A stretch of DNA of 64,000 bases from a virus (lineage: Duplodnaviria; Caudoviricetes), in IMG/VR virus record IMGVR_UViG_3300013121_000001, positions 1 to 64,000 of that record. One strand, written 5' to 3'. The notes under the pieces were generated by a model. It worked only from the letters and a program-made list of their open reading frames with translations, ran no database searches and had not been told where the DNA came from. Of the stretch, positions 8,555 through 44,200 are shown one piece after another. Made by a program: the position numbers and the translations under genes. The number at the start of each line of letters is the position of its first letter. Position 1 is the stretch's first letter.

Positions 8555-8945
8555 AGAAATATCTATTGATAGATATTCTATGATTGACAAAGACTTTGTT
8601 AAGTTTGCTTATTCTTTATTAAAAGAATTCTTTTCTTTAGTAATTACAGGACTAACAGATAGTTATACTTATAAATTACCAATGAGATTAGGATTTATAA
8701 AGATTGAACAACTAAAAAGAAAGCCAGTTGATTGGGTAAACAGTGTTAAATTAAGGACAAAAATCATACATAAAAACTATAATACAGATGGGTATTTGTG
8801 TAGATTCACATGGAAGAAAAAGAACACATATACAATTTTTAATAATAAAAGTCATTACTCGTTTAGGCCAACGCGTACAATAAAACGTGCGTTTAGTAAA
8901 CTACTTCAAACAGAGTATAGACAATACACCCCAACAAGACAATAG
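8505..8945 (+). CDS. IHF/HU-like small basic protein of the crAss tail module
   Basis: Basic protein with YKLPMRLGFIKI and YSFRPTRTIKR, in the position crAss-like phages use for an IHF-like gene. Start uncertain. Confidence 0.55.
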   Translation: MQSKAKPKIVTTTALLKEISIDRYSMIDKDFVKFAYSLLKEFFSLVITGLTDSYTYKLPMRLGFIKIEQLKRKPVDWVNSVKLRTKIIHKNYNTDGYLCRFTWKKKNTYTIFNNKSHYSFRPTRTIKRAFSKLLQTEYRQYTPTRQ

Positions 8946-8946
8946 T

Positions 8947-9912
8947 ATGGATTATATATCAATTAAGTCTGCACTATCGGACTTCTTTTCCAATACAGGA
9001 AGAAAGGAAGAAGTAAACGAAGATAACATACTTCAATGGGCATCAGACTGTATGGAGAAGATTGGAAACTTTAGACAGTATAGCCCGAATATAACGTTAT
9101 TAGAACTTTCTAATTATAGAGCTAAATTGCCAAATGACTTCATTGCAGCTGAGTTACTTATGTTTACGTATACATCTACATCTTGCAACGATTTATCTCT
9201 TCAATTAAGCGAAACAATTACACAAGATCTAGAAGGTAGTTGTAGTGTAACAGTATCTAAAACTTGTGATGGTTGTTGTGGACAACATATAGTGGAGACT
9301 GTAGCTTCAGATGAGTTAGTAAAGTCACATCCTTGGATTGGATACTCAAGAGTTGTATTAACTAGTGATGCGTACAACAAGAGATTTAAAGATGAGTTTA
9401 TACCTATGAAGTTAAGTGACAAGGCAGCTGTAAAATATCACTTGAGTGATTGCGACAATGTTAGCTTACAATATTCAGATGTACTATATACTATAAAAGA
9501 TGGATACATTATAGCTAACGAAAAGTCTGGTAAAATACTTCTTTTCTATTTAGGACAAGTTGTTGATGAAGAAGGTTATCCAATGATACCTAATAAGATA
9601 GAGTACATCGATGCTATATATTATTATATAGAATATAAGATGGCTTGGGCAGACTATGTAGGTGAGAAGTCTCAATCCACAAGGATGTTATTTATAGACA
9701 CACAGAGAATGTCAAATGAAACTATAGCAAGATGCATTGCTAAAATGAATACGCCTACGTGGGCAGAAGCAATAGAAATAAGTGAGATGTGGAGACAAAG
9801 AATACCGCCGACTAATCTACGCGGCCCTAATTTAAATTATAATTTAGAAAGAAGTAAACTTGTAAATAATGCAAGATATAGGTCAGCAACAACCCTCTTT
9901 AGGAATAAATAG
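8947..9912 (+). CDS. Tail tubular (P22 gp4-like)/ring protein
   Basis: ATG at 8947 directly follows the previous stop. Motifs NYRAKLPNDF, YTIKDGYI and DEEGYPMIP...DAIYYYI. Confidence 0.7.
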   Translation: MDYISIKSALSDFFSNTGRKEEVNEDNILQWASDCMEKIGNFRQYSPNITLLELSNYRAKLPNDFIAAELLMFTYTSTSCNDLSLQLSETITQDLEGSCSVTVSKTCDGCCGQHIVETVASDELVKSHPWIGYSRVVLTSDAYNKRFKDEFIPMKLSDKAAVKYHLSDCDNVSLQYSDVLYTIKDGYIIANEKSGKILLFYLGQVVDEEGYPMIPNKIEYIDAIYYYIEYKMAWADYVGEKSQSTRMLFIDTQRMSNETIARCIAKMNTPTWAEAIEISEMWRQRIPPTNLRGPNLNYNLERSKLVNNARYRSATTLFRNK

Positions 9913-20477: not shown

Positions 20478-23400
20478 ATGGCAGATAGATTTTTTTACGA
20501 TATACCATTAGTAGACTTTAAGCCTGGCACTCCAGATGTAGATATGAACTTTCTTAAGTCATTAGCTGATGACTATAGACAGACTGTCGAGAAAGCTGAT
20601 GCTGCCAAAGAAGATATAATAAATAAGCTGGGTAGTCTTAACCTGCATCAAACATTTTCAGATGATTATGCACAGTACATGAAAAATGTAGAAACACAAA
20701 TAGATCAGCTTGATAATAAGTATCAGGGAAAGATGATTGATAGAAACTATAAGAATGAATTATCTTCAATGATACGCAATATTCAAAACGATCCTAATCT
20801 TAGATACATGGCTAATACAAGTAAAGAATTGTTTACTTATGAAGACATGGTTAGAACTAAGACTGATTACTTAGAATATAATGATCCAATGCTTAGTACA
20901 TATAAATCTGTATTAGAAAGACAGAAAGGTACTAAGCCTAGGTTTACAGCTACAAATATATATAGTGATGTAAATCCTAATGAGCAGATTAGACTTATAG
21001 CAAAGGATATAAATATAACAGAAGATACAGAATATAAATTTGACCCTGTTGCAGGAACAGTTGAAACTATAGATAAGAAAACAAGAACTGCATCAGACAT
21101 TACCTCGAAGATGAAACCAGTAATGGAATCATTTCGTGGTACTCAAGCTGGACAACAATTAGAAAGAGAAGCTAAGTGGAAAAAGAAACCAGATGGATCT
21201 TCGTATACTTATGAAGAATTATTTATTGATAGAGTAAATGGCGTTTCAAAATTACTTGAAGTCAACAATGTTAAGAAACAATTGTCTGTAAACCCAGCTA
21301 AAGAAGTAGAGCTAAAACAGAATCAAATTGATTTAGAGGCTGCAAAGCTACTACAGGATAAGGAACAGTTTGATAAACAGTTTGCACAAATGGTTAAACA
21401 AGCGAAGAATGATGATATAATTAAACTACAAACCCTTGCACTACAGTGGCAAACTCTTGGATTTGAGGTAGAAAAGTTTAATGCTGAAATGTTAGCACAG
21501 TATAATAAGAATGGGATGGAAGCTGCGCTTGATCTAATGGGTAAAAGAATACAGCAACAGAAGAACGGAATGTATTCACCTGGAGGAAGTGGAGGAGGAA
21601 GTGGAGGCGGTACTGGAGGTCAAGCACTTGGATACAACGAACGATTCCAGGGTCCTGGCGTACAAGCAGTAACACCAGACCTACCTGAAAATTCTTATAC
21701 GTCAAGATTAACTGAATCGGCAAAAGTTTCAGATGCAAGAGCAGCAGATATTAAACATAGACTTACTTCAAGTAACATATATAATGACGATCAGTTAACA
21801 CAAATTGAAGCATATTTAAATAGTATAGGTACACCAGATCAAGCAAAGCTTGGTAGTAATCCATTTACTATGAAGTATGTAAAATCAAATGGTGAGGTTG
21901 TTGTTGCACAGGGAACATTAGAACAAGCAATGTCTAATGACCCAATGTTAGTGCAGTATAGTCAAGCATACTTGGAAGGTAACAGAACGTATAAACAATT
22001 TGAAGATGTACTGTTTGAATCAACTAATAATTTTTTAGGTAAGTTTGCGGCTGATGATGAGACATTACAACAATGGTTAGATAATGGAATTCTGACTCGT
22101 GATATGTATAAATCTACAACATATAAAAATGCAGGCGGATATGGCATAGACGAACAGAAGTTAATGGAATACTATGGTGCATCTGTTACAAAAAATAAAT
22201 CACGCCGTATTATAGAAGTTGATGCGAAGGCTATAAATACAGATTATGTTGGGCCAACGCAAGTATACTATAATCAATTAGAATCAGCTGTAAATGAAAA
22301 CAAACCTATTGAAGTATTTTTACCTAGCGGATTGTCTGGAACTATTTCAGTACAACAAGCTAAAATAGCTTTAGCTAAAGCAGACCAACAAATATATAAT
22401 GAGATCATGAATAGTAATCCATACCTAAAGGAATGGAATAAATCTAAGACTGGAGCTGTAGCAAGTAGATTTGGTTCACAAGGTACTATAGTAAAAGGAT
22501 ATATGATGGACCCAAAAGGTGATGATGGATTATCTTCGCTTGAAACTAAATATACAAACGGACTAAATTTTAGTCTGGAAGGACTTGATCTATATAGTAC
22601 AACAACTGGGCTACCTTATAGAGCTGTAGGCGATGGACTAATATCAGAAACAACTTCTACTGGTGAAGCTACAGGAAATAAGTATAGTTATATCCAACCT
22701 GGAATTATATATCTTGATAGTACAGGTAGACTTGCAATGCAAGTTAAACTTTATACAATAGATCCAAAGAGTGCAAAACAAGGTGAAGTGCCGGCATCAA
22801 TACAAGCCACGTTATTAGATAGTGACAAATCTAATATACAAAGTGTGTTTCTTGCGCCACTGTTTGCAAATGTATATGGTCAAACTGTTGGAAAAGGAAT
22901 AGCTTCATTCTTTTCAGATAATGCAAAATGGGTAGCTAATAATGTATCATACATTAATACTGGAGAATCGGTGCAAGTACCTTATGACAGTAATACAAGT
23001 GTTATAAAACAAGTAGATGGTACATATCAAGTTTTAAATAAATCGACAGGAGAGACTATATCTGCAAATAGTGATTTTCAATTGGCGGAAGTACTATCCC
23101 GTGTAGATTATGCAGCTACTGCTACATATACTGAACCACAAATACCTACCATTAATTTAGATGCTGTGGGTCAAGTTCAAGCACACATAAAAGAATTGGA
23201 TGAATTAATAAGTGATTATATGAAAACCACAAATGAACTACCAAAAGATGTAACTACAACTACAACAACATCTAACGGTACGACTACTACTAAAACAGCA
23301 AATCCTGATTTAGTAAAACAGATAATCTTTGAAAGAGTCTTTAAGACAGCCGTGTCTGATAAAGAGAGTGGTGGCAATCCTGGAGCTGTAAATCTTAAAG

Positions 23401-30600: not shown

Positions 30601-33600
30601 TAGCATTAATGTTAGAACAGCTACTCACAAGGGACAATACGGAGAGAAGATACAAAGAAATGATGATGTACCCTCAGACATGGTGCCAGTGTTTCCGTCT
30701 AAATCTGCGCTGTCTATTCTTGAAACATTTCTAAACTATGGCAGAAAGCGTGATAATGGTGGTAAGTTCAATCCTAATAAAGATCAGATCTTTATTGAGA
30801 GTGGTAATGTGGTAATGATACGTAGGAATGCAGCTGGTGTATATGATAGAACAGAGATTAGTCTGTCAAGTATCATAGTAAATGGAACTATAGATAAGAA
30901 TAACGCAGATGTAAAAAAGATAATTGACTATTTAAGTAAAAAGCACATGAACGTAAACTCACGTATGCTGTTGTTTAGTAACAACAATAATATGTTCTTT
31001 TTACCTAAGGTTAAAAACAATCTTGTTGTAGGTAATAGAATTAGTATCGGTGATAGACACGGTATTGAAATGGAATTCCAGAATCAGAATTATAAGACAT
31101 GGTTATCACGTAATGTTCTAGAAGTTGCTAAGATGCCTGAAGCTAAACCAGGTGAGAAACTAAGCAGAACTTCAGGACAAAAAAACTTAATATACAGCGA
31201 TGAACTAAGTGATACATTTATTGTACCAAAGACAAAAGCTAAAACTACAAAGGCACAACCTACTGTACAGCAACAACAAAATGTTAATTCACAAGTTAAC
31301 ACAAAGAAACAACCGTCATCGAACACAACTAAAAGTTCGAGAGCTTGGTCTTCTCTATCTGCTGATGAGAAGGACGATATTAAAATAAAGTTTATGTCTT
31401 CTGCACGTGCTGTTGGTTTACCTACACAACAGTTAGACATAGAAGTAGAAAAATGGTACAACGAAAATGTTTATAGCGCAGGTGCTCCTAAAAAGTTTCC
31501 AGCATCTATAAAACAAGATGTTGAAAGAATAATAGAGACACAAGAAGCTAAAGATAATCTAAGAGATATATTTGGAGATCAGTTTGTACAAGACCACTTT
31601 GAAATGATAAGTGGATTAATACATGGAGAAGACATAGGCTACTTCACAGATGATGGTAAGATATTACTTAGTACTCAATCGTTTGCTGGAGTAGAATATC
31701 ACGAAGCATTCCACAGAGTATGGCGTATATTTGTACCTGCTGCACAGAGAGAAGAAATAATTACAGAGTTTAAAACACGTGCAAACTGGAAAGCTTTAGT
31801 AGAAGCTAAACAAGATGAAGGTTATCGAACTAAAAGTGAGGCAGAAATAATAGAGGAGATATTGTCTGACGAGTTCATGGATTATATGATGAACAAAAAG
31901 ACAAAGCTAAAAGATAAACAACGTACTTGGTTTCAAAAACTAATTGACTTTCTGCGTAATCTATTTAGTCCAGATAAATCTTATCCAACTAAAGTAGAAA
32001 GATTGTTTGCTGAGATTTCTCAAGGCAAATATAAAAACATGTCTGGAAGTGTAGATCCAATATTCCTTTATAAGGGGGCACCAAAGAAAGCAAAGATGCC
32101 TGTTCCAGACAGTGTGTCTGGTGGATATAGACTTCAGGATATAGTAATTAATGACACTGTATATCAAGAGTTTAGAAACGGATTTGCATTATCAATACTA
32201 CGTAGCCTAAGAGACTCAGGTAGGTTGTATGCAACAATATCAGGAATGAGTACAGACATAGAAGATGTGTTTAAAAACAAACTTGTAGAAATTGTAGACA
32301 AACTTCGAAACGTAAAGGCTACTGAAGCAATACCTATGCGTGAGTACGCAGAATCTATATTAGATATTTATGACAAGATAGATGAGATAGAATCTATAGA
32401 AGATAAGTCAGAGGCAGAAAAACGACAATTAGTAATACTGAGAAGACTGTTAAATAACAATGAAATTATTAATGGATATAAAGCATTTATGAAAGACTTA
32501 GGTATAGATAATAACGATGTTACTACATCTAATTTAACTATTGAAGAAATGCTAGATACTGATAATGGGCCAATAAAAGACGACGCAACCTATAGAGTAA
32601 CGTTTGAACTAGATCCTCGTACTAGTATGAAATCTTTAATGAGATTACTTATTGCCACTCTACCTGAAGTACAACTTACTATAGGTACATCACGTCCTGG
32701 ATTACCAGCTAGAAAGGTATACACACCATTAGGTGGAACTATACTATCAAACATAGCACAGCCAGCTAATTGGAATAATACAGTATCCTTATTACTAAAA
32801 GAGATGGCAGGTGTACCACCAATCTTTGTACGTACAAGATTAGATACACTTGGAAGTAAGTTCCCTATGCTAAGAGAATTAGTAACTTACTTGCTACATG
32901 AGGACAATACTCCTGTACTTAATTTATTTACAAGTGCATTTCATAATCACAATTATGAAATGAGCATACAAATGATGAGAATAGATAAAGGTAAAGATGT
33001 AAGTGTATATTCAGCAAATGCAAATATAAATAGTGGTATTGGTACAATACAGCTTAGAATGCGTTCGTATATTGAGCAACAATTAACTGCAGATAATAAA
33101 TCTGCAATTTATGATTACTTTAACAAGATACCTACGATAGGCTCAGGTAGCTATAATCAAGACCAGCTAACTAAGATATTGGGATTCTTAGGTATTGAGA
33201 TACCACCAATATTTCTTGAAGTAGGTACAGATGGTAAACCTATGTTTATGCGTTCAGAGTTCTTAGTATCAAGTTATGATACCACAACTGGTGGTACTAC
33301 ACCTAAGGATTTATCTTTCTTAGCTAGAACTCTTGTTGGCGAGATTATAAAACATACAAGTTCATATAACTCTCGTATTAATAACTTGGATGGAATCTTT
33401 AATGGGGACGTAGTTAAGGGAACACTAAATCAATTAGCAGAGGTAGTTGCTAAGATGACGCCATCTAAGAGCGTATCTATTATGAATGGACAGAATAAGA
33501 TGTACTATCCTATAAATCAACACAGCTATCAAACAGTAATGCTAGACGATATATCGTTTGTATTGCAAGCATCTACTGCAGAGATAAATGAAATGTACAA

Positions 33601-36600
33601 TATGTTGTTTAAACAAGAGGAAGGTAGTATTATATTTGACATGTTTGATAAATCTATAGCTGCAACACGAACTCGTGAATTAGAAATAAAGATTGAAAAT
33701 AGAATTAGAGATGACTATAGAAGATATAATATAGTTCCAACACCTGAAAGAACAAACCGACTTAAGATCTTATACTATACTTATCCATATATATTTATGA
33801 GTAATAATAATTATAATTCTGTATGGAAACAACAGATAATTAGATATGAGTTAGGTACCGAACTTCCTATACAAATAGTAATTAAAGATAGTTTAAAACT
33901 TGAAACAGATAAGAATGGACAACATCTATCTGATTTATACGCATCTGATTTATTCACTGTCATATTGTCTAGTACAGTATATGGAGAGTATAAGTCTGTA
34001 CAACACGCTGAACGTGCAATATATTACTTTTATAAGACTAAAGACTTTATTCCTTATAATATTGATATGTTTAATAATAAGGGTAACATTGATGAAATGA
34101 ATCCAATACTTTCCAATAAAATTATAAATACTGTATTAGGATATTTAACAGATGAACTATTAGCATATCATTCTAGAACACATGAGCATACAAACTACAG
34201 TGGGTTTGGAGACAAGAAAAAATACAATGGATTGTTTAATGATATTATACAAGGTAATAGCAGTATAAGTAGATCAATTAATGCTTTTATAGAACAACTG
34301 TCTAGTCCTAATATTACACATCAAGGTGCGCAGAATCTAATTAGAGAATACTTGGCTAATAATACAGTGCTTAGAGAGAATATAATAGCATACGTTGTTA
34401 ATAAGTCTAATGAGTTTGTAACAAAATTACAAGAAGAGCATGGACTACTAACTAGTAGCACTCCAGTATTTAATGAGTCCGCACTTAGTATACAGGATTC
34501 TAATAATAGTACAAGTACGATTGCTAGAATAGCTTGGATTAATACCTGGATAACTCACATAGAGGAAACTAAACTATTCTCTGGACCAGTACAATTATAT
34601 GGTAGTGCTGGTACATTCTGGAAACGTATGGTTACACAGTCATCAACAGGTAATTTGCTTAATAATTCTCCTGCCATACTACATAACATTAATACGTATA
34701 ATCAAGAAACGGCAAATACATTTGGTGTTGTATATGGCAAGGAAGAAAAAGGATTACTATCTGAAATAGTTTTTGTAGAAGAAAAAGCAGATGCAGTAGC
34801 TTATAGAGAACTTGTACACGAACAAATGGTGTCTTCATATACTCAATTATTTATTAATGCAGGATATGATCAACTTGATGCACAAAGCCTTGCTCTACAA
34901 CAAGCAGATAAATATGCTGCAGGTTATAGTAGTGTAAATGAGAACGATGGTATAGGTTGGATAAATCCATTTGCATATAGAGCATACATGATAATGGCAG
35001 AGAAATGGACAGAAGAAATGCAAGAAGTATTTGACTTTGAAATGTATGTGTATGCAGATGCGTTAAGAAATATATATAAACATGAAAGTGCAATTCGTCG
35101 TGCATTAGAACAAGGATTGCCTATTCAAAATGCAAGAAACGTAGCTGCTGCACAAGATAGGTATACACCTATAGATGAACTATTTAATAGATTCATGAAA
35201 GATAAAGGAAAGAAAAATGTAAACTCTGTTGAGTGGTTTCATAAGCACGCAGAAGCTATGACTATGTTAAAGCCACAATACGTAGGACAAGTATATAGTC
35301 ACAAGTCAAATAAGAATCCGTCACTAGCTGATATTATGTTAGATGAAAATATAGAACATTTTATCGGTGGTAGAAAGATGGCATATGATTACCTGTCTCC
35401 ATATGTACTTAGAGGTGAGAAACCATCAGAGCGTACCAAACAATTTGACATGCTTAGATTTATGGTATTTCATGGAATAGATCATATGGTAATGGGTAGT
35501 GGCGCCAAGTTCGGTACAGTAGATCAAGTAAAATGGTATAACAAAGAAGGACAGTTTAATGTAGACGATTTAGTAGATAGTAAAGCTGGATTAAACTTAA
35601 ATTATGTAGCACATTTAGACTGGAGACATTTAAAGAATCAGGTTGATATACATACACATCAGGAAGCTAAAGTAGTTGACTCATCACAGTCAAGAAAAAA
35701 CAAGGTGGCTACTGTTATGAATAATGGAGTACCTATTGACTTTGATAGATTAATAGGAGAGACAGATGAAGAATATAAAGATAGGTGGAATGAACATAGA
35801 CTAAACGCAGAACGTATAGCTAAAAGAAGTAGGAAACCTATTGAAACTTCAAGTACGTTATATAATCTTAAGGAAGAATATAAGTCTATACAGGCTGAAA
35901 TTACTTATAGGTTAATAACAGAGCTTGAGTCTAGTATTGGATTTAGTAGAGCTAGCGGATTATATACAGAAGATTTAGATAAGATAATAAGTGTTCTAAA
36001 ACAGAATGCTAAGAATAGAAATTATTCATCTAACCTAATTGAAATGATCGAAGACATAAAGAATACAAAGGCTTATGACTTCTTACCTGGAAGAAAAAGA
36101 ATAGAGAGCTTACTTACTTCACTTGTATCACGCGAGACGATATCTCAAAAGAGATTAGGCATAGATCTTCCACAAGCACCGTCTACTGGTCTTGAATCTA
36201 TTAGTAGTCCTATGCGTATTGCTGGGGATGAGGGTAAGTTAAGATTCTATCGTCCTAATGTTGCAGAAAACACTACAAGTTCTGAAGTAATTATGCCATT
36301 ACCAGAAGCTTATATGGTACAAATAAACAGATACTATCTAAATAAGTTTATAAAAGCTGGTGGTAAGAAAGAAGCCTTTAATATATTTAAAGCTGTCGAA
36401 ATGTTAAATAATGATATTGCAGATCCAAACAGTGGAATTAATATTGAGATGTTAGGTCTTCGTATTCCTAACCAGCAGCTATCATCTAATGATTGGATGC
36501 GTGCTGTTAAGTTTTATGTGCCAATTAAAAATAGCTATGTATATGTACCACATTACATAGTAGTTAAAGTAGGATCTGACTTTGACATTGACAAATTAAA

Positions 36601-39600
36601 AATTTATTTACCACATCTAGATGATAATCTAAATCCTATTGAAATGGACAATGATTTACCAACACCAAGAGATGTAGTTAGATACAAAGATCAAACTATA
36701 TTTGAGGGATTAGAAGTTAAGATTGATGACAACACATCTGTATATAATGCATTAGATAATAATGATGACTTAATGAATGATCTGACTGTTAACATACTTG
36801 AAATAATAGACATGCTTATATCGAATGATATAAATGTTGTACTTGAAGATGGAAGTAATATAGAAAATAGTGAACTCTCTGTTCGACTATTTGACTATAA
36901 AAAATTAACTATAAAAGATTTAAGTACTATAATAGATGCACTCGACAAAGTATTTATAGGACACGGATTTATTGACTTAAGTAATGAGACAGTTAGTATT
37001 TCTTTATCACAACAAGAATTTAATGATCTTGCATTACTATTAGATGAGCTTAGTTCATTAAGAGACGAAGCAGTTGAGAAAACAGTAATACCTGCTGATA
37101 TGGCTGTATTACAACAGAAACTTAAAAGTGAAGTAGGTGATCCACTTAAGTGGTCATCAACAGAGGCTTTACATAATCGAGTGTTAGAAATTGAGAGAGA
37201 TATTTTATTAAACCATAGAAACTTTGCTAGTCTTGTTAAGCCTGTATCAATGGAATTAGCTACTCAAGTTGCAGAGGAACACGGTATTAATGAAAAAGTC
37301 AACGTAAAAAATTTATCAAAAGCAGTAGATCCTTTAACTAATATGGAAAATGCAATATACTTTGTACACGCAAAAATGGGTGTTGGTAGAGTTGCATTAA
37401 CTATAAATATTAAGGCAGTATCATTAGATTTAGATGTTTCTTTAAACAAAGAAGTGTTTAGTGCATCCGAAGATAGAATAGTTAAAGTAAGAAACTTATT
37501 CTCATCTAATCCAGATGTGACATTTTCAGATCTACTAGATGGTACTGGTACTATAACACTTGATAACTCATCTGAGACACTTACACTACAAGTAGATGCT
37601 GTTAAGAATCCAATATCAGTACATTTAGGAATGAATCTACAAACACTTAACTTGATAGGATATCTAATAAATATAGGAGTTTCCTTCCCAGATGTAATTG
37701 GATTGTTTCAGACACCAGTTATAAGTGACTACTTACAAAGTATTAAATTAAGAACAAGTAAGTACATTGGAGCTTCCAATGGATTTGTGTCTAAAGCTAA
37801 TATTAAGAAAGAGTTTTATGATGAGTGGTTAATAAACAAGGCAAAATCATTAGGGCCTACGCAGGCAAAAGAATTATATAAGTTCTTAGCTGAAATTACA
37901 GAAGACGACGATCAGCAAATACTATCGTATAAAGACGTACATAAGTTACGTGAAGCAATGCTTAAACCCGGATTAGGTGCATTGGATAATAGAAAAGGAA
38001 ATGAGTTAGATAAAGCTAAACAAGAGTTAGTGATGTTATTATACATGTTTGACTTGATACCAACAGGAGACGAGTTTACTGATTTCTTATTAGCTGCTGC
38101 AGCAGATACACGTGTACATAAAAGTCTTGAGGCTGCAGAACGTATGCAATCATCTATTAACTCTTATCTTACACAGTCTTTTACTACACCTAAAATTGTA
38201 TCAGCTAACTCATTTAAGTCTATAATGGATAAGAGTATTGTGGGCTCATTCTTCGAATCACAGAGAGAGTATACTGCTCTTATCAAACCGTTGTATAGAA
38301 TGGATAAGATTAATATACGGGTTGGTAATACAGAAGTTCCAATATTTGCAGAGCTTAGAGAATTATTTAGACAAATGACACCAATAGGATCTACATCACA
38401 AGAGATACAGAGATATGAAGATTCGTTCATAGATGATTTAATAGTATATCTAACGTATAGAGTATTAGAGGATGCAATAAATCCTACACATCCAATGGGT
38501 ATACAACCTAGTAATTTCTCTAAGAATATTCTAGAAGTTGCAAAAACATTTTTATCTTTAAAAGATGCGTCCATAGATGCTAAAACACTTTTAGATATTA
38601 TTAAAAGGTCTGGTGTTAATCTAGGTATTACTAATTCGAAAGATCCAAAGAACAGAATACTTCTTGAGAAGAAAGTAACGCCACAAAATAAGGAAGTAAG
38701 AGTTGCACGTATTGTTGATAGAACACTACCTAATGTAGAAATAGAAGACATGATTTCTAGTATTTCACAGCGCTTAAATAATGCTAGTAACATAGCAGAT
38801 ATGCGTGCTGCTTTATCATTATTCTTTGTGTCAACTATGCAATCTGGTATTAGTAATTCACCCTACTCATTTAGTAAAGTAATGCCATATACGGGTGCAG
38901 TTAAGGATATATTAATTAAGTCTATGGAACTAGTAGAAAACTTATCCGATGAGAACAAACTTAATCTTGCTAAAGAATTCTTTGATTGGTTCTTACGTGC
39001 TAATCCATATGTAAATGGTAATGAATCTAGACAGCGTAGAAATATTAAATTTTTTAGATTAATATCACCATATCACTGGTCATTAAAGAATGGAGTATTT
39101 AGTTTGATTGACAACAATTCAAGAACTAATGTTACTCATACTATTATTGGTAGTTCTTTCCATAAAGAATTTAATACTCGAGGTAATGCAAAATTAATTG
39201 ATTCACTTTTTAATGCTTATCTAAGTACTAAAGGCATAGTTATAGGTAGCGAATCAACTACTATTGTACCAGTTATTAATGGTATTATTACGTCTGGTGT
39301 GATAGGTCCAAGCAGTGCTGCGCTAATAGTAGCGCGTAATCACAATATACCTATTTCAGGTTATGCACATCCAGAGGGCAAGGTAGCTGAAAAGAGAATG
39401 CATAGAAAGAAACTTGAGAATGAAGGATTAGAGTTTTCAGAAGAAAAGTTTGTTGAAAAGAATATAGAAAAATCTGATGGTGTCGTATTTATAACTACTG
39501 ATAAAAACTCTAGCGCACACAAAATATTATCTGGTATAGCTACAACAAGTAAGAAACCATATCTACTTATAAATATGAATACAGAGTTAGGACAAAACAC

Positions 39601-39736
39601 TAATAACCTATATGACTTTTTCAGTACAAATAATATTAAATCTCCTTACTTTGTTGGAGATGAGACATCTGATGCTGAGAAATATACCGTTCAATTACTA
39701 AACAACTTTCTAAACAATCTAACAGAGTGTGAATAA
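24620..39736 (+). CDS. Giant virion-packaged DNA-dependent RNA polymerase polyprotein (crAss/phi14:2 gp66-like)
   Basis: GLRIPNQQLSS and catalytic GSDFDIDK (DFDID at 36578-36592). Zincin-like HEAFH (31700-31714) with downstream EEILSDEF. C-terminal SLOG-like domain. Confidence 0.9.
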   Translation: MGKTNLINPYQDIIDFANAQSGARFNPFDNRVPLAGASTMSTAPSSGIDIRQSEFQIPSNITPEDLPYYQAAQQDNWSRLGRTLGNLPFNVGFGILETFGYLGSMPDLIWGGDFDNALTSWAREKRNAVAGQVYEPVYGKSTVEHLSNPAWWIVNGGGLAESISEFGITTIPIAGALGKAAQLAANVAKVTARTATGLNLGARVLTGVTTGYMEGAMSGAQIYQQTYEDGLSKGLGIEAAQKNAAEAAATTTRINTVLMGISNAAMLGPAFFSADKVARAERYAQQMGLSQAVGETNEQFIKRLEAASIEDALKNNTYKIFGKYDSGIRRGSLDWLKESTMEAGEEVANVFAEQRGLQAGGVTEKKGILETLSDVLSSPEGQMSALLGAFGGIGEASIISRIPWHRYQETKETTDAEGRPITEPVGAKQWVSAKTLEDKEVQEKFEQFKGTIIRDVKQFEEGQKNLSTLKTRLINAEEDDKEWLKTQIELQTQKLFDFSAYQSLQTGNLKAIRELFQGVAELDNTEVLSDKIDQQIATLKSTRDTLPEDGKAAINIEIERLERESAKYSGMTAAMAAGLADSTSDNAYKTRAENQIEKLNSLEKIYDDTMARYNYGDELTYGLAKYIFSAKAELLNIGVAVEELTKFEQNLAAKIDAQMAADNLPMDLQAYVKNQSAYMSLSNRLNTLLEKHTKIRDNIDSMTESELLSAMHEMGVPTSTLPVDSTKEQLIEALTDYTNTTAAVIGAKMEDASDELLNAITSYANSKAINKPLPLNSTATPTPDLEEAKAQLEAAFKKEQKNLYGLATVRTRLENLKAMQTHLDNSINKLASAKGRKQFIEFVKKQLEDRAKTSAQQKTEVDSKNITERRFANELRMKGYDKDFVNALMKALTEGTALPQQYRNTNVFVQGSRGNFTGKRYRIYIDENGKATISELKPKGKKRSRWELTGSSSVKFTDKKDKQVYRNVKDKKTGKFKKVLDKNTELRGKINVHAFMRSMRVLSVQENNDYNATSKLRVKRTVAKQAAYQMIRQLQDRQANAQAVVAMRTADIEKMQNVQADFVTVFTNLFNTFNLDPTALSSVLSRLNDAFDNYKEEINRIETDNSLDDQAKTSQSIIGATVFEEAIEDLRYDVIEMFYNTISARHQAADTTLSTEDAMDKAAEELEAFTKANASANLLFDTEAHAKNAVILMNRSRTINDLQKELDAAQNDFEHLQQRIEAVTSYLQDLSNLPLTSFNTAPIVELRLAVEGELKDDFPFEFASFMDNTIQTGRQELAIFMLQLYEEVEKMPDTSPEKDQMKTLLNSLSTKYGMTQLDILDARITILADRGKPNLGVVENLTSVRVAKALKTLADKGFKLDTLEDLIKAEEILLMRDLLEQERVNMQAEIDALQEDLNQLREFRNLQVRNLALLAKTAKNASLFDMTVVEDFKGHLESNYKDLNLPNPEEILKALALDDEDSIAYNAMYAALLEYRNGNVTQVQQDIQEFKTRFADRHIDSDTVTELLQDQINALTVAKDEMLRNTIKRQALFVTLMNKYITGLQDESMFKAIYYKKLKDLGSHAESNFINNFDLDFNEDIEPDYYTVARKTSTEFSTTGMEDIFTPNNPAYVDEKGNLVMAKGIRGINKDDGTILNPNDPVDRVIIEKHLPMERWFRFTSSNETRKLIKEGKVNLKLQSIKKALEYAETIINDVNSSESKKLTYGVLKKELEAMIKSIEDANPANSDEILANTVIAIPVTSNGDMTHAAYFDADINATQAAIPWTVLRKSTTVFPRNQMGDTELDLEKLGVGSRRIAAAERNLKFEVAGNTVTIFTDKEKTKKYTFPNGDTSYTIQSATQKQRYTELQQLRRRIAIDMLRAEYETFIKDIVNSDDPQYVEIKATTPGTNLMVHEITPSGPKMLKRKMSEISVTQDTGDFKGKLYIAQRDGLTIDGVQYSQFSPGQLVYKGVNDETYLAMTKNLEDLDPTLRDRFIDVFLYALLLAGTVTTPLGSINVRTATHKGQYGEKIQRNDDVPSDMVPVFPSKSALSILETFLNYGRKRDNGGKFNPNKDQIFIESGNVVMIRRNAAGVYDRTEISLSSIIVNGTIDKNNADVKKIIDYLSKKHMNVNSRMLLFSNNNNMFFLPKVKNNLVVGNRISIGDRHGIEMEFQNQNYKTWLSRNVLEVAKMPEAKPGEKLSRTSGQKNLIYSDELSDTFIVPKTKAKTTKAQPTVQQQQNVNSQVNTKKQPSSNTTKSSRAWSSLSADEKDDIKIKFMSSARAVGLPTQQLDIEVEKWYNENVYSAGAPKKFPASIKQDVERIIETQEAKDNLRDIFGDQFVQDHFEMISGLIHGEDIGYFTDDGKILLSTQSFAGVEYHEAFHRVWRIFVPAAQREEIITEFKTRANWKALVEAKQDEGYRTKSEAEIIEEILSDEFMDYMMNKKTKLKDKQRTWFQKLIDFLRNLFSPDKSYPTKVERLFAEISQGKYKNMSGSVDPIFLYKGAPKKAKMPVPDSVSGGYRLQDIVINDTVYQEFRNGFALSILRSLRDSGRLYATISGMSTDIEDVFKNKLVEIVDKLRNVKATEAIPMREYAESILDIYDKIDEIESIEDKSEAEKRQLVILRRLLNNNEIINGYKAFMKDLGIDNNDVTTSNLTIEEMLDTDNGPIKDDATYRVTFELDPRTSMKSLMRLLIATLPEVQLTIGTSRPGLPARKVYTPLGGTILSNIAQPANWNNTVSLLLKEMAGVPPIFVRTRLDTLGSKFPMLRELVTYLLHEDNTPVLNLFTSAFHNHNYEMSIQMMRIDKGKDVSVYSANANINSGIGTIQLRMRSYIEQQLTADNKSAIYDYFNKIPTIGSGSYNQDQLTKILGFLGIEIPPIFLEVGTDGKPMFMRSEFLVSSYDTTTGGTTPKDLSFLARTLVGEIIKHTSSYNSRINNLDGIFNGDVVKGTLNQLAEVVAKMTPSKSVSIMNGQNKMYYPINQHSYQTVMLDDISFVLQASTAEINEMYNMLFKQEEGSIIFDMFDKSIAATRTRELEIKIENRIRDDYRRYNIVPTPERTNRLKILYYTYPYIFMSNNNYNSVWKQQIIRYELGTELPIQIVIKDSLKLETDKNGQHLSDLYASDLFTVILSSTVYGEYKSVQHAERAIYYFYKTKDFIPYNIDMFNNKGNIDEMNPILSNKIINTVLGYLTDELLAYHSRTHEHTNYSGFGDKKKYNGLFNDIIQGNSSISRSINAFIEQLSSPNITHQGAQNLIREYLANNTVLRENIIAYVVNKSNEFVTKLQEEHGLLTSSTPVFNESALSIQDSNNSTSTIARIAWINTWITHIEETKLFSGPVQLYGSAGTFWKRMVTQSSTGNLLNNSPAILHNINTYNQETANTFGVVYGKEEKGLLSEIVFVEEKADAVAYRELVHEQMVSSYTQLFINAGYDQLDAQSLALQQADKYAAGYSSVNENDGIGWINPFAYRAYMIMAEKWTEEMQEVFDFEMYVYADALRNIYKHESAIRRALEQGLPIQNARNVAAAQDRYTPIDELFNRFMKDKGKKNVNSVEWFHKHAEAMTMLKPQYVGQVYSHKSNKNPSLADIMLDENIEHFIGGRKMAYDYLSPYVLRGEKPSERTKQFDMLRFMVFHGIDHMVMGSGAKFGTVDQVKWYNKEGQFNVDDLVDSKAGLNLNYVAHLDWRHLKNQVDIHTHQEAKVVDSSQSRKNKVATVMNNGVPIDFDRLIGETDEEYKDRWNEHRLNAERIAKRSRKPIETSSTLYNLKEEYKSIQAEITYRLITELESSIGFSRASGLYTEDLDKIISVLKQNAKNRNYSSNLIEMIEDIKNTKAYDFLPGRKRIESLLTSLVSRETISQKRLGIDLPQAPSTGLESISSPMRIAGDEGKLRFYRPNVAENTTSSEVIMPLPEAYMVQINRYYLNKFIKAGGKKEAFNIFKAVEMLNNDIADPNSGINIEMLGLRIPNQQLSSNDWMRAVKFYVPIKNSYVYVPHYIVVKVGSDFDIDKLKIYLPHLDDNLNPIEMDNDLPTPRDVVRYKDQTIFEGLEVKIDDNTSVYNALDNNDDLMNDLTVNILEIIDMLISNDINVVLEDGSNIENSELSVRLFDYKKLTIKDLSTIIDALDKVFIGHGFIDLSNETVSISLSQQEFNDLALLLDELSSLRDEAVEKTVIPADMAVLQQKLKSEVGDPLKWSSTEALHNRVLEIERDILLNHRNFASLVKPVSMELATQVAEEHGINEKVNVKNLSKAVDPLTNMENAIYFVHAKMGVGRVALTINIKAVSLDLDVSLNKEVFSASEDRIVKVRNLFSSNPDVTFSDLLDGTGTITLDNSSETLTLQVDAVKNPISVHLGMNLQTLNLIGYLINIGVSFPDVIGLFQTPVISDYLQSIKLRTSKYIGASNGFVSKANIKKEFYDEWLINKAKSLGPTQAKELYKFLAEITEDDDQQILSYKDVHKLREAMLKPGLGALDNRKGNELDKAKQELVMLLYMFDLIPTGDEFTDFLLAAAADTRVHKSLEAAERMQSSINSYLTQSFTTPKIVSANSFKSIMDKSIVGSFFESQREYTALIKPLYRMDKINIRVGNTEVPIFAELRELFRQMTPIGSTSQEIQRYEDSFIDDLIVYLTYRVLEDAINPTHPMGIQPSNFSKNILEVAKTFLSLKDASIDAKTLLDIIKRSGVNLGITNSKDPKNRILLEKKVTPQNKEVRVARIVDRTLPNVEIEDMISSISQRLNNASNIADMRAALSLFFVSTMQSGISNSPYSFSKVMPYTGAVKDILIKSMELVENLSDENKLNLAKEFFDWFLRANPYVNGNESRQRRNIKFFRLISPYHWSLKNGVFSLIDNNSRTNVTHTIIGSSFHKEFNTRGNAKLIDSLFNAYLSTKGIVIGSESTTIVPVINGIITSGVIGPSSAALIVARNHNIPISGYAHPEGKVAEKRMHRKKLENEGLEFSEEKFVEKNIEKSDGVVFITTDKNSSAHKILSGIATTSKKPYLLINMNTELGQNTNNLYDFFSTNNIKSPYFVGDETSDAEKYTVQLLNNFLNNLTECE

Positions 39737-40056
39737 TGGCGTGTAGAATAATAAGAGATTCAAATAAAGAGATAGTAAGTGTATTGGCTCCCAATGGGGA
39801 GCCATCACAACTATTTGGAGATATAATGGTTGACGTTAATGACACAGAAGAGGCATTGGATATTTATAGATCTATCAATAGTGATTATAAATTACTTGAG
39901 TTAAAAGAAACAAAAGGCTATACTGATAGTAACCAAGAATTAAGATGGAATACTATAAAGGATAATTATATAAATAATACTGTAAGTGAATCAAGTATTG
40001 TAGATAAAGAATTACTACAAGATCTAGTAGATAACGGACATTTAAATTGCGAATAA
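39736..40056 (+). CDS. Small RNAP-associated cargo protein (106 aa)
   Basis: TAATG-coupled to the RNAP gene. Contains APNGEPSQLF; Cys only at residues 3 and 105. Confidence 0.7.
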   Translation: MACRIIRDSNKEIVSVLAPNGEPSQLFGDIMVDVNDTEEALDIYRSINSDYKLLELKETKGYTDSNQELRWNTIKDNYINNTVSESSIVDKELLQDLVDNGHLNCE

Positions 40057-40057
40057 T

Positions 40058-43000
40058 ATGGCAGGAAGTTGTAATATAAATTTTAGAACATTAGTAAATG
40101 TAGCTGGTGACAGTGGTGCATTTGCGTCTGCATTACTTAAACAAATGGATAATGCAACAACTGTAGAACTGTTAGACTTCCTACATAACAATTCTACACT
40201 AGATTTAGATAGTGATAGATACAAGCTTGGATCAAAGATAATGAAGCAACGTCCGTCTAGTCTTGCAGGAAAGTTGTATGAGTATCATGGTGGACAAGAT
40301 AGACTTGCATTACCCGATACTAATATACAAACAGATGCAGGTACACTTGTACATGAGATAGCAGCGTCAACTGGACAGCTATTGACTTCTAAACTAAAGC
40401 CTGGTCAACTAGTAACAAATGAAATGATATCGTCTATATCTAGACAGTTACTTCAGATTGCTAATGATTATCCTGGCTCTACTAAGTTAGACATATATGC
40501 AATTAATACAGTTGCCTCTACAGTTGCTGCACTTATAAATGAAGCAATAACCACACAGAATAAAATTAATCCGAATGTATTACCTACATTTAGATTTGAA
40601 CATAGACTTTTAAATCCTGTTAAAGACATTGGAGGTACAGCAGACATGTTGGTATTATACTCCGACAATACTGCATCTTACTTTGACTATAAAACATTTG
40701 AGCCTGCTGGAGTTGATAAAGGATGGAATGAAGATAGTGGCAACTATATAAAGAATTATGGAGCTTATAAGTCATACCGTAGAGAGAAGTGGGAAGTTAG
40801 TATACCAGCGTATATACAGATATTAAAAGATACATATAAAGTCGTAGGCATAAGACATGCCCGTGCAATACCGATTGCAACATTCTTCAAGAAGACGGAT
40901 GAGTATGTAGCAGCTGTAAAGAACAAGGATAAATTAAAGATGGAGCAGCTACAGGCTAAAGGAAAGACTAGAACAGCTACAGTATCAAGTATAGAAACCT
41001 TTGTGTTAAACAATAGTCTATTACTGCCAGCTGTAATTCAAGTAGAATCTACAGGTGATAATGTATTAGATAAGTTTATAGCTGACAGGTACAAGGAAAT
41101 AGAAGAACTACGTCGTGCTGGCGGTAGTTCAGAATCAAGAGCTAGGAATAGAGCTAGAATAGAAGAACTACAGATTGCAATTGATAGATTAACTACAGCT
41201 AAAGACATAGGCGCTATAATAGATTTAGCTAATAAACTTATAATAGAATCGTCTTCACTATTAAAGGCAATATCAGAGAACAAAGATATTGACAACAGAC
41301 TTGAAAGTATTAGACAACTTAGAAATGAGTTGTCTTATTATAAAGACATAACAGATTTAACTGCAAGATATCTTTCGTCACTAACTGATCAAAATTTAAA
41401 ATCAAAAGTATCTAGTTCATTAGGGGAAGTTCTTACTAAGATGTCAATAGCTAAGTCAGCACTTGATACTGTATACTTAAATGAGATGTCTACTAATAAC
41501 CTAATACACAAAGGAGTATCTAAGCAAGAATTGGATGCTGGCGTAATTCTATTTGAACAAGATGATTTATTGCAGAAGTGGGCTAAAGGTGCATCAAATA
41601 GTAATAATCCTTTTCTTGTACAAATGAAATCCGTTCATGATAAGTTAGAGAAACAGAAGCGTGATATGCTGAAAGAGTTTGAACGTGATAGTGAGAAGTA
41701 TTTTACTGGATTACAAGAGTTTATGAAACAAGTAGGCTGGAGTGAGCAAGAGTTTATTAAGTTTATTGTTAATAAGCGTGGTAATCTTGTTCATAAGTTT
41801 AGCTCTGAAATGTATGATCTTATTAATACTGCAATACGTGAACGTAATTCGTCATTCTTTATTAATAATTATACAGTAAAAGATAACTATGAAGCATCAT
41901 ATAAAAGACGTCTTGCTAGAAAAGAAGTTGAGTTAAAGACTAGGTTTAATATTACCGAAGATACAAAGGATAAGAGCAATGTTAAGAAGTATGAAGAAGC
42001 ACTACAAAATTGGATAGAGGATAATGCATTGTTTATAGATGGACATGTTAACGAAGTTGCTTGGTCTAAACAATCTAATGTTAGATACTTCTTAAGAAGA
42101 ACTGCAGAATTTGAAAGTAAGTACTATAGTTCACAATATAATTTTATGACCAAGCATCCAAAGTTAAAAGACTGGTATGATTTCTGGCAACGTACTATGT
42201 ACTCTGCAAAAGACATGTTAGGTGGTAATGAAAAGGTTACAGCTAACTTAATACCTTGGGTAGCTAAAGAGTCCTTAGAACTTGCTGTAGCACGTGGTGG
42301 TAATGTAGCACAAGACATGCTTAATGCAGTATCGATGAATCAAGATGATCCTACAGAAGAATACGATGCATTTGGCAATCTAATTAAATCAGTACCAATA
42401 ATGTATCTAAGTCCATTTAAACGTAAGACAGCAGAAGGAAAGTTTGAAGATGATTTGGATAAGAAGTCATTCAACCTTCAAAAATCTCTGATGCTGTTTA
42501 TGGAAATGGCGATTAACTATGATCTAAAAACAAAATCTGAAGCGTCAATAATGGCAATTAAAGATATGATGGTAGACTTTGGACAAGTATATCAATTAAC
42601 AAAACAAGGACATGTTATTATAGATCCTGTAACAGGTAGACCAAAGACGGGAAATGAAGTATCTAAAGATATAATAGATACGTTTAATGATTATATGAAC
42701 TTCTATTGGTATGGAATGAGAATCTCTACACCTGACAAAACTATTAATGCATTTGGTAGAGAAGTATCAATGCAAAAATCATTATTAGCAGCTAAGAATA
42801 TGTATGCTCGTAAGGTTCTTGCGTTCTCATTACATGCGCCACTTGCATCATGGGCTGTTGGTAGAGTTATAACTACTGTACAAGGTAGTAAAGGATTACT
42901 GTTTGATCATACCATGCACGCAAATGCAATTAAGTGGTGGGCAGAATCTAAAGCTTCTACGTTCTCTAGTTCAGGTTCTAATGGAAAGAAATATAAAGCG

Positions 43001-44200
43001 TTCTTAACTTATTTTGATCCACAGAATGAATCACTTGTAGATAGAATAAACTCTAAGTATCAGTCGTCAAGAATTGATAAGTATTTAGGTAATCGTGCAC
43101 AGTTTGCATTCTTTCACCATGCAGATGAGGCTGTAATTGATACGCTCGCAATAGCTATAGCACAGAACTATGGTATTAAAGACGGTGTACTGAGACACAA
43201 AGATAATCTAGAACAGAACGACAAATCTTTGTGGGAATTATTTACTGTATCTGAGAAAGATGGTGAGGTAGTAATGGATATTGAACTACCAGGCAATTAT
43301 ACTGAAGAGCAAAAGAAAGAATTGAAGGATCAGATATGGATTAAGTATAGAAAGATAGTGCGAGAAGCACAACGATCTGTAATAGGATCTATTTCTGACG
43401 AAGAAATATCTCTACTTAGTACAAATTTATATGGTAATCTTGCACTACAATTTAGAACTTGGTTACCTAATGTGGCATATGAAATGTTTAAAGGACTGAA
43501 GTATGATGAAACATATGATGCAGTAGATATAGGTAGATTAACTGCATTAGCTGATTCGTTCAAAGGATTAGATAGAAAGTCTGGGCTGGGTAAGCACGGT
43601 ACACATATGATATCTACTATGGTTAAACTTCTTGGTGAGGTTTTATTTATTGGTAGAGTGTTTGGATACGATAGACAACTAATAGATACTGAACGTGCAC
43701 AGAATGTATTTAGTCAGTGGCAAGAAAAACATCCGCAGTTAGCTAAGAATGTTACGTTTGACGATTATGTAAAAGCAAGACGTAGACAGATGATAGCTCT
43801 AATTTCACAACTAAGAATACTAGCTATGCTAACTGTAATGATGATGGTTGTGTCGATGGATTGGGATGATGACGATGAAAAGGATTATCGAAAATCATTT
43901 GCAACTAGACACGGATTCAGAATATTAAATAGAATCTATACAGAGTTTGCATCAATGTTGAACCCTGGCGAACTAAATAAGCTTATATCTGGTGGACCAA
44001 TACCTACATGGGGATTAATTACAAGTGTAGCTAAACTATTTAATAACAGCTTAGATGAAATAAGAGACACCTTATTAGGAGAGAACTCATCACAAGATGA
44101 AACTCCTTTCTTTTACTATACTATTGATTTTATTCCATTATTAGATAGACTTAGAAAAATAATGGAGCTTACAGATGCAGACAAGAGATCAACAAGATAG
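40058..44200 (+). CDS. Large RNAP-associated cargo protein with N-terminal PD-(D/E)xK nuclease-like domain
   Basis: GTLVH...FEHRL...GGTADMLV...FDYKT, followed by a long helical region with LALQFRTWLP. Last + strand gene. Confidence 0.65.
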   Translation: MAGSCNINFRTLVNVAGDSGAFASALLKQMDNATTVELLDFLHNNSTLDLDSDRYKLGSKIMKQRPSSLAGKLYEYHGGQDRLALPDTNIQTDAGTLVHEIAASTGQLLTSKLKPGQLVTNEMISSISRQLLQIANDYPGSTKLDIYAINTVASTVAALINEAITTQNKINPNVLPTFRFEHRLLNPVKDIGGTADMLVLYSDNTASYFDYKTFEPAGVDKGWNEDSGNYIKNYGAYKSYRREKWEVSIPAYIQILKDTYKVVGIRHARAIPIATFFKKTDEYVAAVKNKDKLKMEQLQAKGKTRTATVSSIETFVLNNSLLLPAVIQVESTGDNVLDKFIADRYKEIEELRRAGGSSESRARNRARIEELQIAIDRLTTAKDIGAIIDLANKLIIESSSLLKAISENKDIDNRLESIRQLRNELSYYKDITDLTARYLSSLTDQNLKSKVSSSLGEVLTKMSIAKSALDTVYLNEMSTNNLIHKGVSKQELDAGVILFEQDDLLQKWAKGASNSNNPFLVQMKSVHDKLEKQKRDMLKEFERDSEKYFTGLQEFMKQVGWSEQEFIKFIVNKRGNLVHKFSSEMYDLINTAIRERNSSFFINNYTVKDNYEASYKRRLARKEVELKTRFNITEDTKDKSNVKKYEEALQNWIEDNALFIDGHVNEVAWSKQSNVRYFLRRTAEFESKYYSSQYNFMTKHPKLKDWYDFWQRTMYSAKDMLGGNEKVTANLIPWVAKESLELAVARGGNVAQDMLNAVSMNQDDPTEEYDAFGNLIKSVPIMYLSPFKRKTAEGKFEDDLDKKSFNLQKSLMLFMEMAINYDLKTKSEASIMAIKDMMVDFGQVYQLTKQGHVIIDPVTGRPKTGNEVSKDIIDTFNDYMNFYWYGMRISTPDKTINAFGREVSMQKSLLAAKNMYARKVLAFSLHAPLASWAVGRVITTVQGSKGLLFDHTMHANAIKWWAESKASTFSSSGSNGKKYKAFLTYFDPQNESLVDRINSKYQSSRIDKYLGNRAQFAFFHHADEAVIDTLAIAIAQNYGIKDGVLRHKDNLEQNDKSLWELFTVSEKDGEVVMDIELPGNYTEEQKKELKDQIWIKYRKIVREAQRSVIGSISDEEISLLSTNLYGNLALQFRTWLPNVAYEMFKGLKYDETYDAVDIGRLTALADSFKGLDRKSGLGKHGTHMISTMVKLLGEVLFIGRVFGYDRQLIDTERAQNVFSQWQEKHPQLAKNVTFDDYVKARRRQMIALISQLRILAMLTVMMMVVSMDWDDDDEKDYRKSFATRHGFRILNRIYTEFASMLNPGELNKLISGGPIPTWGLITSVAKLFNNSLDEIRDTLLGENSSQDETPFFYYTIDFIPLLDRLRKIMELTDADKRSTR

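Follow-up and report, generated by a model that had tools for sequence, protein, structure and literature searches.

Cysteines at Facing Protein Termini Mark the RNA Polymerase Cargo of crAss-like Phages and May Join Its Members Head to Tail

Why would a phage keep four cysteines in nearly 8,000 residues of cargo protein and place every one of them at a terminus that faces another? The question is raised by the window analyzed here, the whole 64,000-nt stretch (positions 1–64,000) of the Caudoviricetes record IMGVR_UViG_3300013121_000001. On its plus strand lie four abutting or overlapping open reading frames (ORFs; junction style TAATG), P1 to P4, which together encode 7,904 aa and include the putative virion RNA polymerase (RNAP). 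A sequence-only reading of the window had proposed that the terminal cysteines form intermolecular disulfides joining the RNAP, a small adaptor, and the last protein. The present study strongly supports the view, from sequence comparison, that the facing cysteines are direct, conserved partners, which arise where the proteins are broken and are lost where they are fused. By analogy with a solved phage structure, it further suggests that these partners are likely to form disulfides in the crAss-like particle.

Results

Four Cysteines in 7,904 Residues

The first ORF, P1 (20478..24620; 1380 aa), encodes a Cys-free cargo-type protein directly upstream of the proposed chain. P2 (24620..39736), a giant cargo protein of 5038 aa and the first link, has its sole Cys at residue 5037, second from the C-terminus (...LTECE*; codon 39728..39730). 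The proposed partner is Cys3 (codon 39742..39744) of P3 (39736..40056), a two-ended adaptor of 106 aa that starts MAC... and finishes ...LNCE*, with Cys105 (codon 40048..40050) again the second residue from the C-terminus. Cys105 would in turn pair with Cys5 (codon 40070..40072), the sole Cys of the last link, P4 (40058..44200; 1380 aa; MAGSC...), which carries none at its C-terminus. Both P3 cysteines are invariant in the P3-family alignment, as is Cys5 in the P4-family alignment. Counted from the translations, P1 to P4 contain 0, 1, 2, and 1 Cys, and there is none in P1 or at the outer ends of the chain, the P2 N-terminus and the P4 C-terminus. On each of these points the recount agrees exactly with the sequence-only reading, and it turned up zero internal cysteines overlooked by eye, a possibility that reading had named as its own undoing.

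At the Cys frequency of the control ORFs described below (1.18%), ~93 cysteines would be expected in 7,904 aa. The remaining ORFs of the window have 0.4–7.7% Cys, and the flanking structural proteins, which the earlier reading had called Cys-rich, have 0.7–7.7%, including a fibre-like protein (473–6097) with 144 Cys in 1874 aa. With 4 Cys in 7,904 aa the block is far below the rest of the window and shows the depletion expected of ejected proteins. Given four cysteines, the probability that all fall within five residues of the four facing termini is ~(20/7904)^4, or ~4e-11, a figure calculated post hoc; the pattern was therefore tested in other loci.

Identity of the Block

By its sequence, P2 is a fusion of a zincin-like part resembling crAss001 gp47 and a two-barrel virion RNAP resembling crAss001 gp50 and phi14:2 gp66. 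This assignment follows from two motifs and from matches to all three proteins. The zincin-like motif HEAFH (31700..31714; P2 residues 2361–2365) is contained in YHEAFH, which matches crAss001 gp47 at 2157 and provides a landmark for the split points of relatives. The second motif, DFDID (36578..36592; residues 3987–3991), is identical to 1361-DFDID-1365, the catalytic motif of the phi14:2 virion RNAP gp66 (bioRxiv 10.1101/2020.03.07.982082). In blastp, P2 residues 3933–4373 align to residues 1310–1662 of gp66, with further matches to crAss001 gp50 and gp47, and GSDFDIDK is invariant across the seven RNAP proteins of an RNAP-core alignment. P4, judged in the same way, occupies the last, gp49-like place in the crAss RNAP cargo block (E = 3e-9 to crAss001 gp49 and E = 7e-23 to the protein that closes the cargo block of the gut phage cr108_1). 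All three marks of the Crassvirales RNAP cargo block are thus present: a DFDxD RNAP, an HExxH part upstream of it, and a gp49-like protein downstream. The description of P4 as nuclease-like was not upheld, as P4 had no Pfam, PHROGs, or PDB match and its nearest named relative, crAss001 gp49, is a "putative RNA-polymerase subunit." Presence of the block in the virion and its delivery to the host are known from phi14:2 and crAss001 and are predicted for the window.

The final domain of P2, just ahead of the Cys-bearing tail, is a circularly permuted YpsA (cpYpsA)/SLOG domain (39284..39682; residues 4889–5021; Pfam PF12694, E = 9e-12), which also matches PDB 3imk, a "putative molybdenum carrier protein." It was the sole match when Pfam, PHROGs, and PDB were searched with the sequences of P1 to P4. 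P3 opens with an N-terminal module (MAC.I.R...VLAPNG.PS.L), which leads into a flexible C-terminal tail; in its AlphaFold2 (AF2) model, which has a predicted local distance difference test score (pLDDT) of 65, residues 5–54, directly after Cys3, are ordered, and residues 80–106, the tail with Cys105, score below 50. P1 has weak similarity to the phi14:2 structural protein gp68. It is outside the chain, having no terminal Cys and being followed by a P2 with no N-terminal Cys, and a Cys-free, unlinked protein also precedes the first chain member in the survey loci L025, L051, and L090.

A Terminal-Cysteine Rule in 98 Loci

A nucleotide search among phage records with positions 38000–44200 gave no match, nor did a search of IMG/VR with the single P4 sequence; to find relatives there, alignments were needed. 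The scripted survey covers 98 loci, among them 11 IMG/VR loci recovered with a P4 alignment and 80 recovered with an RNAP-core alignment. A junction was scored when the upstream member had a Cys in its last 12 residues and the downstream member had one at positions 2–6, and 287 ORFs outside the cargo block served as controls.

The giant plus-strand ORFs of the survey (n = 226; 501,887 residues) contain 249 terminal cysteines and only 36 internal ones, the latter a frequency of 0.007% vs. 1.18% Cys in the controls. Both cysteines are present within the limits at 139 junctions and just outside them at two more (a Cys at −19 and a Cys7), so that 141 of 143 protein junctions have a two-sided pair, with the upstream Cys in the last 1–19 residues and the downstream Cys at positions 3–7. 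Comparable cysteines occur at the N-terminus of 6.3% of control ORFs and at the C-terminus of 9.4%. The junctions comprise 133 distinct pairs of terminal peptides from 38 clusters that share <50% RNAP-core identity. In 101 of these 133 the upstream Cys is the last, second-last, or third-last residue, and in 129 the downstream Cys is at position 3, 4, or 5. Beyond the paired cysteines, the two stubs sum to 2–12 residues at all junctions but one. Loci have from one to four links. Gut lineages tolerate a few internal cysteines and keep the terminal ones.

The ends of the chains are as regular as the junctions. Wherever the N-terminus of a first member is visible, it lacks Cys, as do the C-termini of last members; cases that seemed to depart from this are either truncations at the edge of a locus or cases in which the next protein, excluded by the filter, does start with Cys. 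P4 homologues at 46–49% identity contain Cys only once, as residue 5, and those at 20–26% identity are Cys-free except for one residue at position 3 or 4. In the loci of these homologues the upstream giant ends ...NCKIP*, ...LREC*, or ...PPTCTI*, an adaptor of 97–129 aa starts M[AS]C and ends ...NC[EKS]*, and the last protein starts MA..C.

Around the junction cysteines no neighboring residue is conserved in the 133 junctions; the Cys alone is kept. Similarly, when the last 179 residues of P2-type proteins are aligned, only Tyr139 and the terminal Cys are invariant. A reading of P3 as a split intein, suggested by its MAC start and ...HLNC-E end, was considered and rejected: P3 has no Pfam family, the His/Asn position is not conserved across junctions, the C-terminal Cys can lie anywhere from −1 to −19, and the downstream Cys is at positions 3–7 and not first.

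The Rule Is Independent of Gene Layout

The rule is obeyed in the cultured and reference phages phi14:2, crAss001, DAC15, crAss002, p-crAssphage, and FpV4. In phi14:2, gp67 ends ...NTIC*, gp66 starts MAC... and ends ...QECK*, and gp65 starts MSC..., which places all four Cys of 5,398 aa at facing termini. In crAss001 they are found at −3 of gp47 (LRCNS*), at position 5 and at −9 of gp50, and at position 5 of gp49. The first member in DAC15, DAC15_61, ends KECLE*; in both crAss001 and DAC15 the middle protein carries Cys5 together with a C-terminal Cys, and in the last protein the Cys is residue 4 or 5. The link order that the cysteines give for crAss001 (gp47, gp50, gp49) is the same as the order of fusion and adjacency in P2 to P4 of the window. 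p-crAssphage LMMB (...FSCM* then MSC) and Flavobacterium phage FpV4 (...KNCN* then MAC) have the same arrangement.

Since the genes of the window abut or overlap (TAATG), the cysteines could in principle have arisen merely from nucleotide signals where genes are coupled, or by chance, with no role at the protein level. In crAss001 and DAC15, however, the gene of the first member (gp47; DAC15_61) lies on the strand opposite to the other two, and the rule holds. It is likewise intact in seven loci (L004, L005, L011–L014, and L033) in which ferritin-like, DUF5675, or homing-endonuclease genes lie between the members. The rule is therefore not an artifact of gene junctions. Moreover, the pairs have been kept over 38 deeply diverged clusters with otherwise unconserved junction sequences, and a per-end control frequency of 6–9% cannot yield 141 of 143. 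The survey contradicts this explanation, which has almost no probability left.

Several observations were made along the way. The interleaved ferritin-like (PF00210, ~165 aa) and DUF5675 genes (L004/L005 at 8535–10004; L011–L014; L033) belong to one clade, and the cysteines of their products are internal, not terminal. In crAss002, gp32 ends ...FVCS* and is followed by an in-frame MSC at residues 33–35 of the annotated gp33; this internal MSC also follows a terminator-like hairpin (L103, 15996–16094). The terminal-Cys rule suggests that the gp33 start was probably set 32 codons too early and that the true start is the internal Met. In FpV4, gp32–gp33 (L105) are a 4287-aa protein with one Cys, at −2, and a MAC... 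protein, that is, the same RNAP cargo block, in a group of Flavobacterium psychrophilum phages that are not filed under Crassvirales in their records.

Cysteine Pairs Follow Protein Splits and Vanish in Fusions

Because YHEAFH always lies 1,300–1,800 aa ahead of DFDID, breaks upstream of the polymerase can be mapped against it. There is no such break in the window, L030, L072, and others, and their unbroken giants have no Cys in this region. In L005, L022, L025, L029, and L033 the break is ~84 aa before YHEAFH; elsewhere it is ~200–270 aa or ~670–1,330 aa before it, and in crAss001 it is 184 aa after. A Cys pair is found at every one of these breaks, whatever its position relative to YHEAFH.

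The other end of the block provides the converse case. In eight loci (L002, L016, L052, L071, L075, L081, L082, and L090) the P3 module (M[AS]C.I.R...VLAPNG.PS.L) is the start of a P4-like protein of 1,228–1,842 aa. Seven of these eight fused P3+P4 proteins have Cys3 only; that of L016 has in addition Cys1525, a long way from where the junction would lie. In the split forms, ...NC.* and MA..C appear at the junction that the split creates. Thus, two predictions of the sequence-only reading, that the terminal cysteines would be conserved at the gene junctions of relatives and that the pairs would track split points and disappear in fused orthologues, were borne out.

Breaks that exist in the DNA only, whether introns, inserts, or a frameshift, have no Cys pair. 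In three loci a LAGLIDADG-bearing insert lies exactly inside DFDID of the RNAP gene (L005, 5494–6585; L011, 4055–5169; L012, 3248–4166). In cr108_1 (L008, 14682–15000) a group I intron of ~320 nt (Rfam RF00028, 80 bits) interrupts the same motif, and the two RNAP exons are annotated as separate hypothetical proteins. In L068 (6830–7094) 243 nt separate two giant ORFs, and protein-like sequence runs upstream of the second ATG in its frame. An intron was rejected for this gap, as Rfam gave none and coding sequence continues upstream; judged from that sequence, a frameshift or assembly error within one gene, not a protein split, is most likely.

Half pairs were found only in two related loci, L013 and L033. 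In these the upstream giant has no C-terminal Cys, and a 185-nt gap (L013, 5607–5791; L033, 13280–13462) holds a conserved ORF of 57–60 aa with GCHxC, a CxxC-type motif, followed by the usual MACQIKRK protein. The small product may be a redox or capping partner. These are the only rule-breaking loci, and the replacement of the upstream Cys in them is what would be expected if each terminal Cys bound a third partner, such as a portal or inner-capsid protein, a small CxxC protein, or a cofactor. So are the lone C-terminal cysteines of gp45-like cargo, an 861-aa p-crAssphage protein (L102, 4988–7573; ...QSCR*) and crAss002 gp30 (L103, 5301–6974; ...FRCGGKKKIA*), for which no N-terminal-Cys partner was found among the neighboring proteins. 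A third partner would not predict the strict complementarity of the survey, however, in which N- and C-terminal cysteines are equal in number, outer ends are free, and both members of a pair are lost together in fusions, and we regard it as very improbable.

A Disulfide Between Facing Termini in Phage A4

A precedent for direct pairing comes from the cryo-electron microscopy structure of the cyanopodophage A4 (Anabaena phage A-4L), in which gp27 Cys1715 forms a disulfide with gp26 Cys5 in the virion pre-ejectosome, locking the gp27 C-terminal helix into a cleft of gp26 within a five-fold assembly (PMC12002296). In the A-4L genome, gp27 (1717 aa) has its sole Cys three residues from the end and the sole Cys of gp26 (1114 aa) is Cys5. 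The pair is kept in Pf-WMP3, Pf-WMP4, and TR020, whose proteins are 23–27% identical to A4 gp27/gp26. The arrangement in A4, two consecutive giant ejection proteins with one Cys each at facing termini, is repeated in P2 to P4, where a lone C-terminal Cys is followed by a Cys at positions 3–7 of the next protein. A4, unlike the window, has a single link, and its chain includes neither a polymerase nor a small adaptor.

The P4 and A4 gp26 families showed no homology in hhalign (probability 0.12%), and blastp gave no match between the A4 proteins and all collected cargo proteins. As no homology between the two sets can be detected, the terminal-Cys device of A4 and the crAss-like phages is either convergent or very old. 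In the Pf-WMP3, Pf-WMP4, and TR020 records (L107–L109), these gp27/gp26-like proteins of the Saffermanviridae are annotated "ParB-like partition nuclease" and "tail fiber protein; host specificity"; the A4 structure puts their homologues in the internal pre-ejectosome.

A metal ion such as Zn or Fe shared by the facing cysteines, an alternative named in the sequence-only reading, would provide a link without an oxidant, and gut crAss-like phages still keep the pairs in anoxic surroundings. There is, however, one Cys per side, no His, Cys, or acidic residue is conserved nearby in the 133 junctions, and the A4 pair is modelled as a disulfide, all of which makes a shared ion improbable. A zinc knuckle or other Cys-based metal site was rejected on similar grounds, as no CxxC/His ligands are conserved around the Cys, which alone is kept.

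Discussion

Collectively, our analyses suggest that the P2–P4 cargo is chained by intermolecular disulfides, Cys5037–Cys3 and Cys105–Cys5, into one N-to-C polymer, a reading to which we assign a probability of roughly 0.7. The proposal that terminal cysteines join the RNAP, the adaptor, and the last protein is strongly supported as regards their partnership, by conservation, complementarity, and the tracking of splits, and is likely, by analogy with A4, as regards the disulfide itself. In the proposed sequence of events, the termini would pre-dock in the reducing cytoplasm and would be locked by oxidation after packaging or lysis. P2, P3, and P4 would travel inside the capsid and leave it through the tail to enter the host, and the bonds would hold the pieces together, ordered and at 1:1, in storage and during passage through the tail. 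A Cys clasp would stand where other lineages have continuous backbone, and the set would act as one polymer of ~6,500 residues; because the bonds lie at the very ends, with stubs of 2–12 residues, the topology of a single polypeptide would be kept. The reducing cytoplasm of the next host would then open the links and free the polymerase.

In proteins of the AB type that are translocated across membranes, a single interchain disulfide holds the chains together during passage, and cytosolic reduction frees the catalytic chain. The principle is the same here, although the proteins are unrelated and the machinery is different, and a use of this kind in a phage is inferred only.

The main alternative is another use of the same bond, in which the disulfides are mere staples of folded capsid cargo, serving stability or packaging stoichiometry, and the proteins part before or during ejection, with no thread and no reductive release. 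In its favor, the A4 bond locks a gp27 helix into gp26 inside a five-fold pre-ejectosome (PMC12002296), and Bayfield et al. placed gp47, gp49, and gp50 of crAss001 as folded alpha-helical proteins in the capsid cargo zone (PMC10172136). A staple could sit anywhere on an interface, yet the cysteines are always a few residues from facing termini in proteins otherwise purged of Cys. At split points, moreover, they replace the backbone, which fits a linear polymer passing a narrow channel. We consider storage-only staples unlikely, and a metal site, a third partner, and chance much less likely still.

Several points weigh against the proposed disulfide chain. Direct evidence for such a bond is limited to A4, from which the crAss-like bond is drawn by analogy, and the A4 bond staples folded proteins in a symmetric pre-ejectosome, which fits a storage staple equally well. 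Catalysis does not depend on linkage, as free recombinant gp66 is active in dithiothreitol. Both the host cytoplasm and the gut are reducing, which leaves the time and place of oxidation unclear. With the Cys alone conserved, the choice of head-to-tail over other pairings is unexplained; in a three-member chain, a circularized middle protein together with a first-to-last link would give an equal Cys count. The structural papers on phi14:2 and crAss001 and the 2026 paper on N4 do not mention the Cys pairs, and the upstream giants of L013 and L033 have no C-terminal Cys. Co-fold prediction of the C-terminal 179 aa of P2 and the N-terminal 250 aa of P4 with P3 gave a score of 0.02, which counts neither way, and a Pfam scan of ten small neighboring ORFs found no thioredoxin or thiol oxidase.

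Among the closest known systems are the homologous proteins gp67–gp66–gp65 of phi14:2 and gp47–gp50–gp49 of crAss001, which follow the same terminal-Cys rule; the window differs from both in fusing the first two proteins (5038 aa) and in splitting a 106-aa adaptor off the last. Mass spectrometry of crAss001 virions identified the cargo as gp45, gp46, gp47, gp49, and gp50, partly unfolded passage through the tail is expected, and disulfides link subunits of these virions in the tail and at the portal vertex (PMC10172136). In the Schitoviridae, the ejection proteins (N4 gp50, the virion RNAP; DEV gp71–gp73) contain 0.00075% Cys vs. 0.865% in the proteome, a depletion ascribed to passage through the envelope (PMC11445570), which confirms the statement in the earlier reading that N4-type virion RNAPs are Cys-free. 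Both groups thus have a giant virion RNAP and co-ejected proteins that are strongly depleted of Cys. In contrast to the crAss block, which comes in two to five pieces with a Cys pair at each cut, the N4-type polymerase is one polypeptide of unrelated fold with no terminal Cys.

Full-text literature searches found no description of the terminal-Cys pattern for Crassvirales, in keeping with the earlier reading, which knew of none. That view needs one qualification, as the A4 disulfide is published, although as a single stabilizing bond and not as a rule (PMC12002296). What was already known are Cys-purged ejection proteins and this one disulfide; what is new is that the pairing is a rule throughout the order, that a chain can have as many as four links, that small adaptors take part, and that the pairs follow gene fission.

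No phages are more abundant in the human gut than the Crassvirales. The storage, order, and delivery of the five crassvirus cargo proteins have been called open (PMC10172136; PMC13434306). The nearly exception-free rule described here names the residues expected to hold the polymerase block together and predicts the order of its links, gp47–gp50–gp49 in crAss001 and gp67–gp66–gp65 in phi14:2. It is also an aid to annotation, as it helps to find true start codons and chain members, as for crAss002 gp33, and to separate protein splits from introns or frameshifts. A wider possibility, which we put forward tentatively and at somewhat less than even odds, is that the internal proteins of every crAss-like phage enter the host as a single covalent thread that can be cleaved by reduction, with Cys clasps in the place of peptide bonds at each point where a giant cargo gene was cut, and that the Saffermanviridae cyanopodophages do the same independently. 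If so, a near-megadalton, polymerase-bearing chain would enter the cell in fixed order and be freed piece by piece by the thiol reductases of the host, a general solution that would also explain how freely these cargo genes split and fuse.

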